Shown: piece by piece, positions 2,932 to 24,783 of the stretch | How positions within the stretch are numbered: the first letter of the stretch is position 1 | Layout: the number at the start of each line of letters is the position of its first letter | Source: an uncultured delta proteobacterium | GTDB taxonomy: Bacteria > Desulfobacterota > Binatia > HRBIN30 | Assembly (NCBI GenBank): GCA_963729835.1 | Contig: CAVSQF010000022.1 | Span: forward strand, 296,150 to 360,149 | Direction: 5' to 3' | Length of the DNA: 64,000 bases | Program-made: the position numbers and the translations under genes | The notes under the pieces: model-generated | Seen by the model: the letters and a program-made list of their open reading frames with translations, nothing else | The model's database searches: none | Told to the model about the DNA's origin: nothing

Positions 2932-4330
2932 CATGGAAAAATGTTTCCACGTGACAATATGGGGCGAAGGAAACAACCGAGTACGTCCGATGGCTTTGCG
3001 GCTGTTGCTCGGGGCCACGCTGGCGGCGGCAATCGTGTCATTTGCGGGCACCGAGGCCAGGGCGGTCCCGAGCTTTGCGCGGCAAACGGGGCTGGCCTGT
3101 TCCTCGTGTCACACGACGTTTCCCGAGCTCAACGCCTTCGGGCGTGCGTTCAAGATGCACGGGTATTCCGCGCTTGGAATGAAGGAGCTCGAAGAAACTG
3201 GCAGTGACAAGACGCCACCGTTGACGATCAATCGGGCCTTTCCTTTGTCGGTGATGTTCCAGACATCGATCACCCGAACCAATCAGGCACAACCTGGAAC
3301 ACAGAATGGCAACGTCGAGTTCCCGCAGCAGATCAGCCTCTTTCTCGCCGGGGAGATCACGCCCCACATCGGTACGTTCCTGCAGGCGACCTACGACGGG
3401 CAGAGCGACCACTTCACGCTCGACAACACCGATATCCGATTCGTCAACGATGCCCAGATCAACGGGAAGGAACTGCTCTATGGCCTCACCTTGAATAACA
3501 ACCCGACGGTGGAGGATCCCTGGCACAGCACGCCGGCCTGGGGCTTCCCGTTCGCGGCGTCAGACACCGCACCGTCGCCCGCCGCGAGCGCGCTTGTGGA
3601 CGGGGCGCTGGCGCAGCAGGTGGCAGGGGCAGGCAGCTACGCCCTCTGGAACAGGCATCTCTATGCCAACGTGGCGGTGTACCGGACCGCGAAGATCGGG
3701 AACCCCCAGCCACCGCCGGGAAACAGCAGCGGTACGATCCGGGATGTCGCGCCCTATTGGCGGCTCGCGTGGCAGCAGAACTGGGGAGCCAACTACCTCG
3801 AGCTAGGCACCTTTGGGATGTTCGCTCAAATGTTTCCCGACTTGAAGGATGCCGACGGTAACCCGATCAACTCTGCCGGCACCGACAAGTTCACCGATCT
3901 GGCCTTCGACACCCAATACGAGCGCCCGCTCGGCAAGGATTTCATCTCGGCGCACGCAACCTACATTTATGAGAACCAGCAGCTTGACGCTACGCAAGGC
4001 GCCGGCGCCTCGGCCCGGCGCAACGACAAGTTGCACACCTTCCGCCTCGATGGCATTTACCACTGGCGCGAGCGCCTGGCGCTGGCACTCGGCTACTTCC
4101 TCACGCGCGGGACGAACGACGCAACGTTCTACTCAAGCAGCATCAACGGCAGCCCGGACAGCGACGGCGTGCGGACCGAGATTAGCTATTTCCCGTGGCA
4201 AAACGTGAGGCTGTCTCTCCAGTACACGGTGTACACGGAGTTCGACGGCCGCAGCCATAACTTCGACGGCAGCGGTCGTGACGCGGTCGACAACAACACG
4301 CTCTACGCACTGCTGTGGCTGATGTACTAA
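2932..4330 (+). CDS. cyc2: Cyc2-like fused monoheme cytochrome c / outer-membrane beta-barrel (candidate Fe(II) oxidase or EET porin-cytochrome)
   Basis: Strong SD AAGAGGAGG 5 nt before ATG at 2932 (alternative ATG at 2989). Signal peptide MALRLLLGATLAAAIVSFAGTEARA. A single CxxCH (CSSCH) lies 10 residues into the mature protein. The following ~430 aa is amphipathic and beta-rich and ends in aromatic residues (LWLMY), typical of beta-barrel OMPs. Size and architecture match Cyc2. Confidence 0.65.
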
Positions 4331-7684: not shown

Positions 7685-8989
7685 ATGGGGGCGCAGCTGA
7701 CCCGATTCTGGCGTTGGATCACCTGGACGTGGAGCCCGGCAAGCGAGCGCGAAGCCAGCAGCGCGATTGTCGAGAACCTCTGGCTGCATTGGTTTCCGGC
7801 GAAAGTCGCCGAAGACAGCTTCACATGGAGTTACTCTCTCTGGCTCGGAGCGATTGCGGCCTTTCTGTTCCTCATCCTGACCGTGACCGGCGTGCTGCTG
7901 ATGTTTTTCTACGTCCCCTCGACCCAGCAGGCGTACTGGAGCATCAAAGACATCCACTACGTGGTCGGGTTCGGGTGGGTGCTGCGCAACCAGCATCGCT
8001 GGGCGGCCCACTTGATGGTGTTGGTGGTCTTTCTCCACATGCTGCGTGTTTTCTTCACGGGCGCCTACCGGGCGCAGCGCAGCGTGAACTGGCTCGTCGG
8101 TTTGGCGTTGCTGCTGCTGACCTTGTTCCTTTCCTTCACGGGCTATCTGTTGCCGTGGGACCAGCTGGCGTTTTGGGCAGTCACCGTCGGCACGAACATC
8201 GCCAAGGAAGCACCGTTGGTGGGGGCGGGGCTGCGGTTCGTCCTGCTCGGGGGAACGGAGATCGGCCAAAGTACGCTCGTGCGCTTCTACGTGCTGCACG
8301 TTGTCGTCTTGCCCGCGGCCGTGTTGGTGCTGTTCGCGTACCATATGTGGCGTATACGCCGCGATGGCGGCATGGCCGTCACCGACCCGGCTGCAACGGG
8401 CACCGCTCCCGTTGGTGGTGGGGCTCCGGTTGCTGGGAAGACCTACTCACTCTTCGGCATCACACCGGGGACCACCCTGGAGGTGCGTGCGGCCGGACCG
8501 CGCGATGAGGAGGACTCGGCTTTTTCATCACCCCACATGCTGCGGCGGCTGATGCTCGTCTTTCTCGGCGTGTTCACAATCACCATCGTTCTCAGTGTGC
8601 TTTCCGGAGCACCGCTGGAAGAGCCGGCGAATCCGGCGCTGACGCCGAACCCGGCGAAGGCGCCGTGGTATTTCTTGTGGCTGCAGGAGCTGGTGGCGAT
8701 TACCACGATTCGGTTGGGCGGGTTGACCCTCAGTGGGGGTCTTGTCGGTGGCATTTTGGTGCCCGGGATCCTGCTAGCGGCGGCGGTCGTCTGGCCATTT
8801 CTTGATGGCAGCCCGCTCCAGGTCATCGGCAAATGGTTCCCGCGGGAGCGCCGCGTGCAGAATACGGTGCTTGGGATCATCGCCTTCGCGATTCTGATCC
8901 TGGTGTTGATCGGCATGCTCATGCGCGGGCCGTATTGGCAGCTCTTCTGGCCCTGGCAAGCGTGGCCGGAGTTGCCACGCAGGTTGTAG
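7685..8989 (+). CDS. cytochrome b (b6-like N-domain fused to subunit IV-like C-domain)
   Basis: 434 aa polytopic protein with conserved cyt b blocks (WGAIAAFLFLILTVTGVLLMFFY, RNQHRWAAHLMVLVVFLHMLRVFF, LPWDQLAFWAVTVGTNI) and heme-ligating His pairs. Confidence 0.9.
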   Translation: MGAQLTRFWRWITWTWSPASEREASSAIVENLWLHWFPAKVAEDSFTWSYSLWLGAIAAFLFLILTVTGVLLMFFYVPSTQQAYWSIKDIHYVVGFGWVLRNQHRWAAHLMVLVVFLHMLRVFFTGAYRAQRSVNWLVGLALLLLTLFLSFTGYLLPWDQLAFWAVTVGTNIAKEAPLVGAGLRFVLLGGTEIGQSTLVRFYVLHVVVLPAAVLVLFAYHMWRIRRDGGMAVTDPAATGTAPVGGGAPVAGKTYSLFGITPGTTLEVRAAGPRDEEDSAFSSPHMLRRLMLVFLGVFTITIVLSVLSGAPLEEPANPALTPNPAKAPWYFLWLQELVAITTIRLGGLTLSGGLVGGILVPGILLAAAVVWPFLDGSPLQVIGKWFPRERRVQNTVLGIIAFAILILVLIGMLMRGPYWQLFWPWQAWPELPRRL

Positions 8990-20351: not shown

Positions 20352-20551
20352 GCTGTGCGTGCCAGGGTTCCGGCGTCTGATGCGTCTCAACGGTTGACTC
20401 ATAGCGCGGGCTCTGGCCCGCAACCCAACACCTGCCGCCCGCGTAGCTCAGCTGCCGGAGTGAGCCGGGACCGTTGTGTCGGCGGCGGACTCGGGTTACA
20501 AGAAACCGTCCGAACGATTCCCGTCTTGAACACAATCACAGGAGCGCACAG

Positions 20552-23107
20552 ATGATCGAAACATACCAGAAGCAGGTCGCCGAGCGGGCCGCCCAAGGCA
20601 TTCCGCCGCTGCCGCTCAATCCGGAGCAAACCGAGCAGCTGTGTCAGTTGCTCACCTCACCGCCTGCGGGGCAGGAAAAGTTGCTGTTGGATCTGTTCGA
20701 GAACCGTGTGTCTCCAGGAGTCGACCCGGCTGCGAAAGTGAAAGCGGGCTTTCTCGGACAGATCTTGACGGGGAAAGCTCGAAGCCCGCTGATTTCCAAG
20801 GCGCGCGCAGTCGAGATCCTCGGCGCCATGCTCGGCGGATACAACGTCGAGCCCCTGATTGCTGCGCTCCAAGACGCCGACGTCACCGCTGCCGCAGCCG
20901 AGGCCCTCTCCCATACCATCCTGGTCTACGACGCATTCAACGACGTCGAGAAGCTGGCGAAGACCAATGCGGCCGCAAAGAAGGTTCTCGAATCATGGGC
21001 GGCCGCCGAGTGGTTCACCGCGCGTCCGGAGCTGCCTGCCGAAATCAAAGTGAAAGTTTTCAAGGTGGACGGCGAAATCAACACCGACGATTTCTCACCC
21101 GCCAGCGACGCGTCGACCCGTCCCGACATTCCATTGCACGCGCTGGCGATGGGCAAGACGCGCTTTCCCGGCGGCATCGGGAGCATTGCTCAGTGGCGCC
21201 AGGCGGGCGCGCGCGTGGCGTTCGCCGGCGACGTCGTCGGCACCGGCTCGTCGCGCAAGTCGGCCTGCAACAGCGTCCTCTGGCACATCGGCAACGACAT
21301 CCCGGCGGTGCCCAACAAGCGCCGCGCCGGGGTCATCATCGGCGGCGCCATTGCTCCCATCTTCTTCAACACCGCTGAAGACTCCGGCGCGTTGCCGCTG
21401 GTCGCCGACGTCACCGGCCTCGGCATGGGTCACGAGGTCACGATCAACACGCGCGAGGGTACGATCACGTCGGCTTCCGGCCAGGTGCTCTCGCGCTTTA
21501 CGATCAAGCCGAACACGCTGCCCGACGAGTTCCGCGCCGGCGGCCGCATTCCGCTGATCATCGGGCGCGCGCTGACGGCGCGCGCACGTGCCGCGCTCGG
21601 CCTGGGCGAGAGCGAGGTCTTCCGCAAGACCGAAAACCCGCAACCCAAGCCCGGCCAGGGTTTCACGCAGGCGCAAAAGATCGTGGGCAAGGCGGTCAGT
21701 TTATCGGGCGTGCTGCCCGGAACGGCGTGCGAGCCGAAGATGACCACCGTGCTGTCGCAGGACACCACCGGCCCCATGACGGCCGACGAGCTGAAGGAAC
21801 TGGCCTGCCTGCGGTTCCAGAGCCCACTCTTCCTGCAGTCGTTCTGCCACACCGCCGCCTACCCCAAGCCGGCCGACGTGAAGATGCACCGCACGTTGCC
21901 GCCCTTCGTCGCTGCACGCAAAGGCGTGCCGCTGCGTCCCGGCGACGGGGTTTGCCACAGCTGGATCAACCGACTCCTGGTACCCGACACCGTGGGCACC
22001 GGCGGCGACTCGCACACGCGCTTCCCGATCGGCATCTCGTTTCCGGCGGGCTCTGGGCTGGTTGCCTTCGCCGGGGCGCTCGGCTTCATGCCGCTCGACA
22101 TGCCCGAGTCAGTCCTGGTGCGGTTTTCCGGCGAGTTCCGCTCCGGTATCACTCTGCGTGATGCGGTGAACGCGATCCCGCTGTGGGCGATCAAGAAGGG
22201 TTTGCTGACGGTACCGAAGAAGAACAAGAAGAACGTCTTCAACGGTCGCATCCTCGAAATCGAGGGGTTGCCGAAGCTGACCGTGGAGCAGGGGTTCGAG
22301 CTGACCGACTCCGCCGCCGAACGCTCGGCGGCCGCCGGCTGCATCCAGCTCTCTGAGGAATCGGTCAAGACCTTCCTGCGTTCCAGCATGGCCCTCATCC
22401 GGCGCATGATCGAGGATGGCTATCAGGACGCCGAGACCTTAGAGAAGCGGGCCAAGGCAATCGAGGCATGGCTGGCAAATCCGCAGCTGCTCAAGGCCGA
22501 CGCCAACGCGGAGTACGCAGCGGTGATCGAGATCGATCTCGCTGAAATTTTTGAGCCGATCCTGGCCTGCCCCAACGACCCCGACGATGTCAAGCTGCTG
22601 TCGGAGGTGGCGGGCACGCCGATCCAGGAAGTGTTCATCGGCTCATGCATGACCAACATCGGGCACTTCCGCGCCGCCGGCAAGATCTGGGAAGGCCGCA
22701 AACACACCCCCGCAACACGCACGTACATCTGCCCGCCGACGCGGATGGATCAGGCCAAGCTCAAGGGCGAGGCCTATTTCGCGTTGTTCAACGCGATCGG
22801 CGCCCGCATCGAAACGCCCGGCTGCTCCCTATGCATGGGCAACCAGCTGCGCGTGCCCGCCGGGACGACCGTCTTCTCCACCTCCACGCGCAACTTCGAC
22901 GACCGCATGGGCGATGGGGCAAAGGTCTTCCTCGGCTCGGCCGAGCTGGGCGCGGTCACCGCGTTGATGGGCAAGCTGCCGACGCCGGCGGAGTACCTGG
23001 CCGAATTCGAGGCCAGGGTCGCCCCGCACCGGGACGAGGTGTACAGATACCTGCAGTTGGACGAACTGGGCCGGTTCGACGACATCTACAACCGGCGCGA
23101 TCTGTAG
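20552..23107 (+). CDS. acnB: aconitate hydratase B (bifunctional aconitase 2 / 2-methylisocitrate dehydratase)
   Basis: RBS AGGAGCG then ATG 20552. MIETYQKQVAERAAQGIPPLPL... is collinear with E. coli AcnB over 851 aa (e.g. DVVGTGSSRKSA, SFCHTAAYPKP, GSCMTNIGHFRA, CSLCMGNQ). Confidence 0.95.
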   Translation: MIETYQKQVAERAAQGIPPLPLNPEQTEQLCQLLTSPPAGQEKLLLDLFENRVSPGVDPAAKVKAGFLGQILTGKARSPLISKARAVEILGAMLGGYNVEPLIAALQDADVTAAAAEALSHTILVYDAFNDVEKLAKTNAAAKKVLESWAAAEWFTARPELPAEIKVKVFKVDGEINTDDFSPASDASTRPDIPLHALAMGKTRFPGGIGSIAQWRQAGARVAFAGDVVGTGSSRKSACNSVLWHIGNDIPAVPNKRRAGVIIGGAIAPIFFNTAEDSGALPLVADVTGLGMGHEVTINTREGTITSASGQVLSRFTIKPNTLPDEFRAGGRIPLIIGRALTARARAALGLGESEVFRKTENPQPKPGQGFTQAQKIVGKAVSLSGVLPGTACEPKMTTVLSQDTTGPMTADELKELACLRFQSPLFLQSFCHTAAYPKPADVKMHRTLPPFVAARKGVPLRPGDGVCHSWINRLLVPDTVGTGGDSHTRFPIGISFPAGSGLVAFAGALGFMPLDMPESVLVRFSGEFRSGITLRDAVNAIPLWAIKKGLLTVPKKNKKNVFNGRILEIEGLPKLTVEQGFELTDSAAERSAAAGCIQLSEESVKTFLRSSMALIRRMIEDGYQDAETLEKRAKAIEAWLANPQLLKADANAEYAAVIEIDLAEIFEPILACPNDPDDVKLLSEVAGTPIQEVFIGSCMTNIGHFRAAGKIWEGRKHTPATRTYICPPTRMDQAKLKGEAYFALFNAIGARIETPGCSLCMGNQLRVPAGTTVFSTSTRNFDDRMGDGAKVFLGSAELGAVTALMGKLPTPAEYLAEFEARVAPHRDEVYRYLQLDELGRFDDIYNRRDL

Positions 23108-23182
23108 CGGGGCAGGGCATCGGGGTTCTGCCTCGATCGAAGAGTGATTGGGATTGCCGGTTTTCCACTTAGGAGACGCGCA

Positions 23183-23560
23183 ATGGGAACATTCTACGCT
23201 GAGTGTAAGATCGAGAATCCGGTTGATCGGACTCGCTCCGTGGTTATCCCCAAGCTGCTGGTCGATACCGGAAGCGAGTACACGTGGGTGTCCGAACGCA
23301 CGCTCGAACGGATCGGGATTCGACGAGAGAAAAGGGATATCACCTCCGTGCTGGCGAACGGCCAAGAAGTTACCCGGAGCGTCGGCTTTGCCATCATTCG
23401 GCTCGACAGGTTCTTCACCATCGACGAGGTGGTCTTCGCCGAGAAGGGCGACCTGCTCCTGCTTGGTGCCAGGACCCTGGAGGGCCTCAACCTGACGATC
23501 GACCCCAGAAGCAAGAAACTGGTCGCCGCAGGGCCGCTGCCAGCTGCCGTAAGTGTATGA
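23183..23560 (+). CDS. retropepsin-like (clan AA) aspartic protease
   Basis: LVDTGSEYTWV catalytic D-T-G-S motif, ~125 aa single-domain. RBS TAGGAGACG. Confidence 0.7.
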   Translation: MGTFYAECKIENPVDRTRSVVIPKLLVDTGSEYTWVSERTLERIGIRREKRDITSVLANGQEVTRSVGFAIIRLDRFFTIDEVVFAEKGDLLLLGARTLEGLNLTIDPRSKKLVAAGPLPAAVSV

Positions 23561-23676
23561 GCAAGGCGGGTCGGTACCTCATCAGCTACTTTGTGTTCAA
23601 GACAACCGGTGAAGCCTTGATTATCAGCGCGAGGGATATGACAAGGAAGGAAAAGAGGTTCTATGCGAAAACCTAG
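23557..23676 (+). pseudogene. 3' remnant of brnT (DUF497) toxin gene
   Basis: 39 codons GRYLISYFVFKTTGEALIISARDMTRKEKRFYAKT match the C-terminal RIISAR...E(K/R)..Y region of BrnT. The N-terminal ~55 aa are absent and upstream frame is non-protein-like. Confidence 0.5.
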
Positions 23677-23821
23677 CAAGCGTGACGCCATTCCTCAGCA
23701 CTTCAGGAACGTCGCAGACGCGGCGGATTTCTGGGACACGCACGATCTGGCTGACTACGGGGACGCGACCAAGGAAGTGAGCTTCGAGGTCGACATCCGC
23801 GGCCGCGTGTTTGCCCTGTAG
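23663..23821 (+). CDS. BrnA-like antitoxin (DUF4415 / CopG-like)
   Basis: RBS AAGGAAGGAAAAGAGG. MRKPSKRDAIPQHFRNVADAADFWDTHDLADYGDATKEVSFEVD resembles the ..FWDTHDLtDY.. signature. Confidence 0.55.
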   Translation: MRKPSKRDAIPQHFRNVADAADFWDTHDLADYGDATKEVSFEVDIRGRVFAL

Positions 23822-23822
23822 C

Positions 23823-24140
23823 TCAGTGCACGACCTTCGGCATGTCCGTCGCCTCGAAAATGGGGCCGAAGGCTTGCTCGTAGCGGCCGATGTTTTCTTC
23901 GATGGCCTTGAGGATGCGTTTCATGTGCTCGGGCGTGGTGATCACCCGTGACCGCAGGTTGGCGATCGCTTGGCCTTGCGGCGTGCGCTGCGGCTGCACG
24001 AACAGGAAATCGAGGATGAACTCCTCCTTGCGGTGCGTGATCATCATGAGGTTGGAATAGACGCCGGTTGCCCCCTGCGGGTCCATTTGGATCGAGATCT
24101 GGTGTTGGTGGGCCTGCTGTTCTTTGGGTTCGTCAGCCAT
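23823..24140 (-). CDS. DUF3467 family protein
   Basis: GVYSNLMMITHRKEEFILDFLFVQP hallmark. Start taken at MADEPKEQ (24140). Confidence 0.7.
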   Translation of the reverse strand: MADEPKEQQAHQHQISIQMDPQGATGVYSNLMMITHRKEEFILDFLFVQPQRTPQGQAIANLRSRVITTPEHMKRILKAIEENIGRYEQAFGPIFEATDMPKVVH

Positions 24141-24285
24141 CGGTGGTCTCCCTTCTGCGGCCGGCAAGTCCAGTGACGGCAGATACGGTGCCCGCCGCCG
24201 TCACTATCAACCTGCCACTGTTCCAGCGTCATGTTGCCGAAACATGAAACGTGAACACAACGGATCACGTTTCACGCATCACGTT

Positions 24286-24783
24286 TCAGGTTCCCACAGC
24301 CGGCTCGGGACGCAGAACGCGCAGCGGCGTGCGCGGCGGCGCGATCCGACAATCGCCGTCGAGGCAACCGCCCTCCTGGACGATCAGGCTCTGCGTCTCC
24401 ACCTTGCCCATCAAGCGGCCGCCGGCGCCGATCTCGACCCGTTCGGCTCCACGGACTTCGCCGCGCACTTCTCCGAGCACGACGAGCTTGAGCGCGCGCA
24501 CCGTCCCTTCGACTAAAGCGTCTTCGCCGACCACGAGCAGCTCGGTGGCACGCACCTCGCCACGCAAGGTGCCGTCGATGCGCGTTGGCACCGTGAAGCT
24601 CAGCCGTCCGCTGACCACCGTGTCGTGGCCCAGCGACGGCCGCAACACCGGGGCCGGCGCTACCACCGCCATTTCGGCAGGCGTGTCAGGTTCCCCAGAG
24701 GTCCACTCCTGGTCCGCCTCCACCTCTTGCTCCCCCTCCATCCTGTTCTCCGGCCTCAGCTCCTCTGTCCGCTTCCAAAACAC
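24286..24783 (-). CDS. bactofilin (DUF583) cytoskeletal protein
   Basis: Repetitive beta-helix pattern TVVSGRLSF...IDGTLRGEV...LLVVGEDALVEGTV...LKLVVLGEVRGEV...VEIGAGGRLMGKV...LIVQEGGCLDGD. Confidence 0.8.
   Translation of the reverse strand: MFWKRTEELRPENRMEGEQEVEADQEWTSGEPDTPAEMAVVAPAPVLRPSLGHDTVVSGRLSFTVPTRIDGTLRGEVRATELLVVGEDALVEGTVRALKLVVLGEVRGEVRGAERVEIGAGGRLMGKVETQSLIVQEGGCLDGDCRIAPPRTPLRVLRPEPAVGT

Follow-up and report, generated by a model that had tools for sequence, protein, structure and literature searches.

In the 64,000-nucleotide (nt) stretch analysed here (contig CAVSQF010000022.1, positions 296,150 to 360,149 of the forward strand; hereafter the window), a short segment between a retropepsin-like protease gene and a DUF3467 gene is very probably what is left of a type II toxin-antitoxin (TA) operon. 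Specifically, positions 23560-23812 are best explained as the central ~255 bp of a former brnT-brnA operon both ends of which were lost, that is, as a non-functional, doubly truncated TA relic left by ordinary gene decay. The toxin keeps its last ~37 residues and the antitoxin its N-terminal ~50. An earlier note on this DNA had proposed a toxin-inactivating rearrangement that preserved the antitoxin and regulator; the first part of this proposal holds, with ~56 toxin codons lost, whereas the second does not, since the antitoxin lacks its C-terminal ~38 residues. The features at the core of the argument are as follows.

23183..23560, plus strand: complete gene for a retropepsin-like (clan AA) aspartic protease of 125 amino acids (aa), with the D-T-G codons at 23264-23272.
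23549..23562, plus strand: left junction, GTAAGTGTATGAGC, 14 nt, which holds the protease stop and the apparently fortuitous ATG of the next open reading frame (ORF), as delimited by DNA alignments.
23557..23676, plus strand: brnT remnant, an ORF of 39 codons, of which codons 2-38 correspond to residues 57-93 of a 94-aa BrnT/DUF497 toxin.
23655..23658, plus strand: GAGG ribosome-binding motif, read from the sequence, 4 nt 5' of the antitoxin ATG and within the brnT remnant.
23663..23821, plus strand: brnA-like (PF12441, CopG-type) antitoxin remnant of 52 codons, residues 1-50 of which correspond to the N-terminal half; TAG at 23819-23821.
23813..23822, no strand assigned: right junction, where brnA homology stops at ~23812 and 1 nt (23822) separates the stop of the remnant from that of the DUF3467 gene.

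The sequence and the list of ORFs agree with the ORF coordinates reported earlier and with the overlap described at 23557-23560, where in the tetranucleotide ATGA the TGA stop of the protease gene shares bases with the ATG of the 39-codon ORF. This ORF overlaps in turn with that of the antitoxin remnant by 14 nt, and the GAGG motif is the Shine-Dalgarno sequence with which the antitoxin ORF had rightly been credited.

By its alignments, the 39-codon ORF encodes the C-terminal end of a toxin of the BrnT/DUF497 family, as the earlier note had suggested. It matched positions 50-77 of the 77 positions of the PF04365 (BrnT_toxin) profile with an E-value of 0.0067 and a score of 17.2 bits, which is under the gathering cut-off of 34.5 and does not amount to membership as a whole domain. 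In a tblastn comparison, residues 57-93 of the intact 94-aa BrnT of locus L005 aligned with it at 23 identities over 37 positions (62%; E 3e-12). Searching 1.84 billion representative proteins by phmmer without filters returned 86 matches at E<=1e-3, nearly all of which placed the 39-codon ORF at the extreme C-terminus of the protein (for example, residues 57-93 of 94), with PF04365 present in nine of the ten matches scanned.

The remnant lacks ~56 N-terminal toxin codons, whose loss had also been recognized before, and tblastn revealed no trace of them in any frame of the window. More generally, a tblastn search for the brnT 5' half and the brnA 3' half (word size 2, E up to 10) yielded nothing that could be credited elsewhere in the window, and neither a second BrnT nor a further antitoxin or protease copy is present there; the suggestion to look for intact brnTA paralogues elsewhere was thus followed over these 64 kb, where tblastn found none. 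A match of BrnT residues 16-58 to the minus strand at 7871-7993 (E 4e-4) was judged to be due to chance, because it is antisense and belongs to a spurious long ORF of a high-GC gene, within a plus-strand ORF at 7685-8989 (434 aa) which we take to encode a cytochrome b. RNase activity of the Brucella abortus BrnT toxin requires Asp6, Glu7, Lys9, Arg41 and Glu78 (PMC5086665, citing Heaton et al. 2012). The region equivalent to four of these five residues (Asp6, Glu7, Lys9 and Arg41) has gone from the remnant together with most of the beta-sheet, and given the loss of these four residues and of most of the fold, the remnant is, as judged from its sequence, certainly inactive. As regards the 5' end of the ORF, intact relatives do not have a start codon at the position of the ATG at 23557, and their sequence there is ...GQTETGRYL (the Q/T/E region); this ATG would have arisen at the junction and would not be a native start.

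With regard to the second gene, the claim that the BrnA-like antitoxin is complete did not withstand comparison with its relatives. The 52-codon ORF matched only positions 2-37 of the 79 positions of PF12441 (CopG_antitoxin), at 25.6 bits and hence below the cut-off of 28, whereas full-length relatives span the entire profile. When 5.8 billion proteins were searched with the 52-aa sequence, 27 matches were obtained; one was an identical protein of 52 aa and the other 26 were all 85-90 aa long. The alignment covers only the first ~51 residues of these homologues, through FWDTHDLADY...FEVDIRGRVF, and then stops, while the homologues run ~38 residues further (...LEPQLAKKLTDAAHRQGISTETLINIWLSEKAQE). 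Within the part retained, the invariant residues F23, W24, D25, H27, D28, L29, A30, D31 ... F41, E42, V43, D44 and I45 are all present, which places the protein within the N-terminal block of the family, and residues 7-51 of the L005 antitoxin matched the window by tblastn at 64% identity (E 5e-18). By contrast, the ~85-90-aa length, the C-terminal helix-helix and the gathering-level score of a full-length antitoxin are all absent from the 52-aa protein. The full-length relatives also weakly match the BrnA family NCBIfam NF047399 over residues 22-85 (E 1e-4, below cut-off).

For the missing half, a structure was predicted with AlphaFold2 from P0004, a full-length relative of 90 aa. This model is mediocre, with a mean predicted local distance difference test (pLDDT) value of 62 and a predicted template modelling score (pTM) of 0.35, and its only confident helices are residues 57-69 and 74-89 (pLDDT ~84), which are preceded by an unstructured stretch and make up the part deleted in the window. 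Foldseek searches of the PDB with the model gave E-values above 1 throughout, that is, no significant match; 21 of the 28 top matches, none of them significant, were ribbon-helix-helix (RHH) proteins (Arc, the PutA RHH domain, VapB12, FitA, AmrZ, AtaR, Rv0298 and DinJ), and the Arc and PutA chains superposed on the model with a root-mean-square deviation of 0.5-0.9 A over ~35 residues and a TM-score of 0.72-0.78 relative to target length. Sequence searches of the PDB with the full-length antitoxin and its profile gave no meaningful match, and a Pfam scan of the isolated C-terminal halves for RHH families was uninformative. With the moderate support that the model lends, the deleted half would be the RHH domain for dimerisation and DNA (operator) binding. 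The antitoxin is not intact; what has gone is its presumed regulator half, and both the toxin and the antitoxin genes are thus relics. Since a functional type II TA module consists of an intact toxin and an intact cognate antitoxin in one operon, and both genes are cut here, the locus does not qualify as one. We infer that neither remnant product works as a normal TA component, because the antitoxin remnant would have neither a toxin to act on nor a DNA-binding domain for autoregulation.

DNA alignments with the related loci L003, L004 and L005 and blastn placed brnTA homology in the window at ~23563-23812, such that ~255 bp of the cassette remain. Identity to L005 is 68% at the DNA level over window positions 23569-23796, and the 14-nt overlap of toxin stop and antitoxin start is native, being the same as in the intact L005 operon. 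The left junction is confined to the 14 nt of GTAAGTGTATGAGC, because protease homology ends at 23548/23549 and brnT is alignable from ~23563. At the right end, brnA homology is followed by GCC CTG TAG, where L003 has GCC GCA TAG. These might be the native last codons, which would point to an in-frame internal deletion, or the resemblance may just as well be due to chance, nine nucleotides being too few to tell.

The gene on the left of the relic is a clan-AA aspartic protease gene, as previously described. Its product matched PF13975 with an E-value of 8.4e-8 and 33.1 bits, above the gathering cut-off of 28.2, and also PF13650; it has the catalytic D28-T29-G30 motif and covers positions 3-107 of the 107 of the TIGR03698 profile, so that its score, its D-T-G and its full coverage all place it within the retropepsin-like clan AA (PF13975). 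Its TIGR03698 and TIGR02281 scores were below the TIGR cut-offs, and we therefore assign it to a separate subfamily. Alignment with 14 homologues defined a core from MGTFY to ...KKLVAAGPLPAA (residue 122), followed by variable tails of 0-27 aa; in the window, the conserved block ends with ...GPLPAA (23548) and a locus-specific tail of three codons (VSV) precedes the stop. The family is very large, in that 7,886 of 8,000 scored candidates reached E<=1e-3, and the best 120 homologues listed had an identity of 77-92% in alignments covering 89% of the query or more. The differences between copies are mostly at third codon positions, which indicates strong purifying selection on the family. A search of the literature for retropepsin-like proteases linked to TA systems found no papers.

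The protease loci compared at the DNA level (window 23183-23548, L024-L030 and L111-L116) share homology from about the ATG to 23548/23549, the 3' limit being the same each time. Even L115, the nearest relative in DNA sequence, aligns (at 91% identity) over no more than 23195-23549 and has unrelated flanks, and the neighbouring genes of both L115 and L116 (81% identity) are unrelated to those in the window. Likewise, the upstream flanks of nine protease loci are unrelated to one another, and the 75-nt spacer that precedes the gene in the window is not common to other protease loci. In seven other gene contexts the homologues are solitary, with no conserved partner gene; the neighbours include sulfatases, glutaredoxin and an FGGY kinase, GST and a histidine kinase, a sigma-54 activator and YtxH, DUF5647, and GFA. 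Since the family is solitary elsewhere, with neither a conserved partner nor conserved flanks, the juxtaposition of protease and brnT remnant is idiosyncratic, and the protease gene, which is complete, would be intact, independent and functionally unconnected with the TA relic. The sole protease context inside a patch rich in TA and insertion sequence (IS) genes is L024. At 3789-3983 of this locus, an ORF of 64 aa with no Pfam match lies 18 nt 5' of the protease gene, in a patch that also holds IS genes and a DUF433/PIN pair; as no gene is called at the equivalent place in L025, the second copy of that assembly, a role as partner gene is unlikely.

The sharp limits of protease homology bear on a different account, according to which the protease ORF is a mobile block with ORF-exact boundaries that inserted itself into or next to brnT and pushed out the 5' half of the toxin gene, one selfish gene truncating another. 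It would explain why DNA homology between protease loci always runs from about the ATG to the ...PLPAA codons with unrelated flanks, even at the 91% identity of L115, why one assembly carries two copies (L024 and L025), and why the brnT remnant starts within 14 nt of the universal boundary of the protease. Several results speak against such mobility, which we regard as very unlikely. Firstly, the 5' half of brnT does not precede the protease gene, and insertion by itself therefore fails to explain the locus unless an extra deletion is added. Secondly, no convincing repeats (terminal repeats included), target duplications or conserved flanking motifs were detected around the protease and the relic, no recombinase lies nearby, and the protease sequence matched nothing in collections of plasmids and phages. 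Finally, third-position differences fit an old gene under strong purifying selection and not a recent transposition. A combined version, in which the protease ORF forms a self-contained mobile unit of ORF size (~ATG to ...PLPAA) that moves from one genomic context to another and whose arrival here removed the brnT 5' half, and in which the protease transcript may still serve for translation of the antitoxin head, is likewise unlikely. As regards the earlier statement that the protease sits in place of the toxin N-terminus, it describes the present layout correctly, given that the protease abuts the remnant, and as a mechanism it is not demonstrated.

Returning to the doubly truncated relic, its surroundings were inspected for the origin of the segment. 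The flanking features are listed below.

20474..23107, plus strand: aconitase-B-like gene (acnB) from the ORF list, left flank, 3' end apparently intact, stop at 23105-23107.
23108..23182, plus strand: spacer of 75 nt with a Shine-Dalgarno-like TAGGAGA at 23170-23176, 5' of the protease ATG.
23823..24140 (ORF to 24167), minus strand: intact DUF3467 gene, right flank, convergent with the preceding genes; PF11950, E 4e-23.

The label aconitase B is our own reading of the sequence of the left-hand ORF, the final 200 aa of which align with relatives over residues 1-200. No brnT remnant was found by tblastn in the 75-nt spacer. The probable start of the DUF3467 gene is the ATG at 24140, which gives a protein of 105 aa, the same length as that of the gene called on contig L001; its C-terminus, ...ATDMPKVVH*, is kept in 18 Binatia-type relatives and is intact in the window.

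The G+C content is 0.545-0.57 over 23100-23800, compared with ~0.65-0.70 in the acnB gene on the left and 0.60-0.64 in the DUF3467 gene on the right. In the 18 Binatia-type loci, gene order agrees with that of the window from the ABC-ATPase genes through a gene at ~24300-24690 to DUF3467, and collinearity ends exactly at the DUF3467 stop, 3' of which all 18 have unrelated spacer DNA; no such spacer exists in the window. In two of them, L011 and L016, a hairpin was read by eye in the spacer after the DUF3467 stop. At this locus, all 18 lack acnB, the protease and brnTA, and among 80 metagenome loci of acnB relatives (best 79% identity) none has the protease or brnTA 3' of acnB. Neither set of relatives thus shows an ancestral state from which the history of the locus could be read. 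Taken together, the protease and the TA relic look like a foreign, low-GC insert of ~0.7 kb, specific to this lineage, at a synteny breakpoint between acnB and DUF3467 in a Candidatus Binatia metagenome-assembled genome (MAG), as which the source was identified by the relatives of its DUF3467 gene. The relic would be young, given that its G+C is still foreign, which would explain why its ORFs are still open.

Given that the source is a MAG, and that the protease is a highly conserved, multi-copy metagenome sequence, the kind of repeat at which assemblers mis-join, we also considered whether the junctions of protease with brnT remnant and of brnA remnant with DUF3467 are assembly artefacts. A contig of 1,639 bp (L001) from a separate Logan assembly of run ERR11594402 is 100% identical to the window over its whole length, both junctions included. 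Because L001 was assembled separately and is identical, it argues against mis-assembly; the two junctions, moreover, lie outside or far from the conserved protease block, and clean truncation at both ends of one TA operon is not what a chimera would be expected to produce, all of which makes an artefact highly improbable. The 52-aa form occurs only in this contig and in the identical protein cluster P0001, and the arrangement is thus private to the organism. A new three-gene operon made up of the protease and the two peptides was rejected, because the arrangement is found in this genome only and the protease is solitary elsewhere.

As for how the relic arose, the most economical view is that a brnTA cassette would once have stood between the protease and DUF3467 genes, all within the foreign low-GC insert, and two deletions, or one deletion and one event of illegitimate recombination, would have removed its 5' and 3' parts. 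The end points would have been set by selection on the neighbours, on the left just past the ...PLPAA of the protease, which according to the alignment tolerates any tail after this motif, and on the right at the stop codon of DUF3467. Alternatively, the protease block might have been inserted into brnT, which would explain a junction at the universal 3' boundary of the block and would need an extra deletion. The relic is the same outcome either way and is compatible with both deletion and insertion.

Some observations weigh against a plain relic. Neither remnant ORF is interrupted anywhere in its homologous part (~88 codons in all), the antitoxin remnant has a good ribosome-binding site, and no terminator-like site stands between it and the protease gene, so that peptides could well be made. 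Furthermore, the N-terminal half that is retained, with the invariant FWD.HDLAD motif, may be the toxin-binding part, because the DNA-binding domain appears to be C-terminal in this antitoxin family; it may accordingly act in trans and neutralise a paralogous BrnT, for which the search covered 64 kb of the genome. The RHH assignment itself is based on Foldseek matches with E>1 and on a model of mediocre quality (mean pLDDT 62, pTM 0.35), and either deletion or insertion of the protease block may account for the layout.

Pursued to its end, this line of argument leads to a toxin killed by the rearrangement and an antitoxin half of 52 aa kept as an anti-addiction peptide against a paralogous or incoming BrnT and translated from the protease transcript. 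The retention of the FWDTHDLAD...FEVDI block, of an intact ORF and of the GAGG site is compatible with such a role, as is the lack of a terminator-like site between the protease gene and the remnant; besides, locus L004 keeps a full-length antitoxin after total loss of the toxin, and orphans therefore persist in this subfamily. Nevertheless, the 52-aa form exists in this genome only, and all other homologues, including the orphan of L004, keep the C-terminal domain, which here has been lost along with its presumed functions of dimerisation and DNA binding. In addition, no intact BrnT was found within the window, and the foreign G+C fits a recent relic in which stops have not yet accumulated. 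On balance, a retained anti-addiction peptide appears improbable.

Truncation of this kind agrees with what was found among the nearest relatives of the operon. The three closest antitoxin homologues are located 3' of a methylmalonyl-CoA mutase gene, with a NUDIX gene next in L004 and L005, and the related loci show the following states.

L005 (JGI 3300044524), 1340-1883: intact 94-aa BrnT and 90-aa PF12441 antitoxin.
L003, 440-982, and L002, 74-616: brnT frameshifted to 62 aa, with a full brnA.
L004, 83-355: brnT wholly deleted, leaving a full-length orphan antitoxin.

From L005 through L002 and L003 to L004, these loci form a decay series. Many of the phmmer matches to the 39-codon ORF were proteins of 47-72 aa in which the BrnT C-terminus stands behind an unrelated N-terminus, and in two, P0177 and P0183, one ORF joins the tail of BrnT with the head of an antitoxin, which suggests that relics of this brnTA subfamily are widespread and routinely called as genes. 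Decay is thus typical of the subfamily, and the relic in the window differs in that its antitoxin has been cut as well. As side observations on these relatives, the entries P0148-P0156, P0177 and P0183 are database 'proteins' that are in fact BrnT C-terminal relic pieces, and a hairpin, GGGCGAGTC...GACTCGCCC, followed by a T-rich run, which we read as conserved, lies 3' of the antitoxin stop in L004 and L005.

The segment was also scanned for regulatory signals. No sigma-70-like promoter and no plus-strand terminator were detected, nor was any terminator-like site present between the protease gene and the antitoxin remnant. The plus-strand genes and the DUF3467 gene converge with their stops 1 nt apart (23819-23825); neither strand carries a terminator hairpin there, and transcription may collide or read through in antisense at this point. 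Further on, 5' of the minus-strand DUF3467 gene, a repeat cluster at 24219-24292 contains ACGGATCACGTTTC / ACGCATCACGTTTC in tandem, together with TGAAACGTGA (twice) facing TCACGTTTCA. By its arrangement, it looks like a candidate operator. The 10-mer of this cluster has no other site in the window, and its 7-nt core (TGAAACG/CGTTTCA) occurs 5' of DUF3467 as single copies in only two of the 18 relatives (L006 and L022).

Decayed toxin-antitoxin cassettes are common in bacterial chromosomes, and the relic is of little import by itself. What it does call for is a correction of annotation, in that the ORFs of 39 and 52 aa, which are called as genes in public assemblies, are pseudogene fragments, and, unless experiments prove it, neither the role of a regulator nor that of an anti-addiction gene should be ascribed to the 52-aa 'orphan antitoxin', which is not intact. 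The protease family may merit follow-up more than the relic does, in view of its extreme conservation, its differing contexts and its ORF-exact block boundaries.

When compared with the BrnT/BrnA system of Brucella abortus (PMC5086665), the locus is alike in that its toxin remnant matches PF04365, in the toxin-then-antitoxin order of its overlapping genes, and in the weak match, below cut-off, of the full-length relatives of its antitoxin to NF047399. It differs in that the toxin keeps profile positions 50-77 only, no functional pair being left, and in that the antitoxin, itself truncated, belongs to PF12441 (CopG_antitoxin) and not to the BrnA family proper. The related loci L005, L002/L003 and L004 share with the window an amino acid identity of 62-64%, the 14-nt overlap and the tendency of the toxin to decay first; unlike the window, they have no protease nearby, the methylmalonyl-CoA mutase gene being on one side and, in L004 and L005, the NUDIX gene on the other, and L002/L003 and L004 have kept a full-length antitoxin in spite of a frameshifted or deleted toxin. 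Orphan antitoxins also exist as anti-addiction modules, such as the chromosomal ccd of Erwinia chrysanthemi, and those known to be functional retain the full antitoxin. The window resembles these in having an antitoxin-derived ORF with no functional cognate toxin, and departs from them in that the C-terminal domain of its antitoxin has been deleted and the 52-aa form was found in this genome only. Finally, the protease is similar to stand-alone retropepsin-like proteases (PF13975/PF13650; TIGR03698, TIGR02281) in its length of ~125 aa, its single D-T-G and its full coverage of TIGR03698, and is set apart from them by a subfamily which is unusually conserved and which was met in a different context in every contig inspected.

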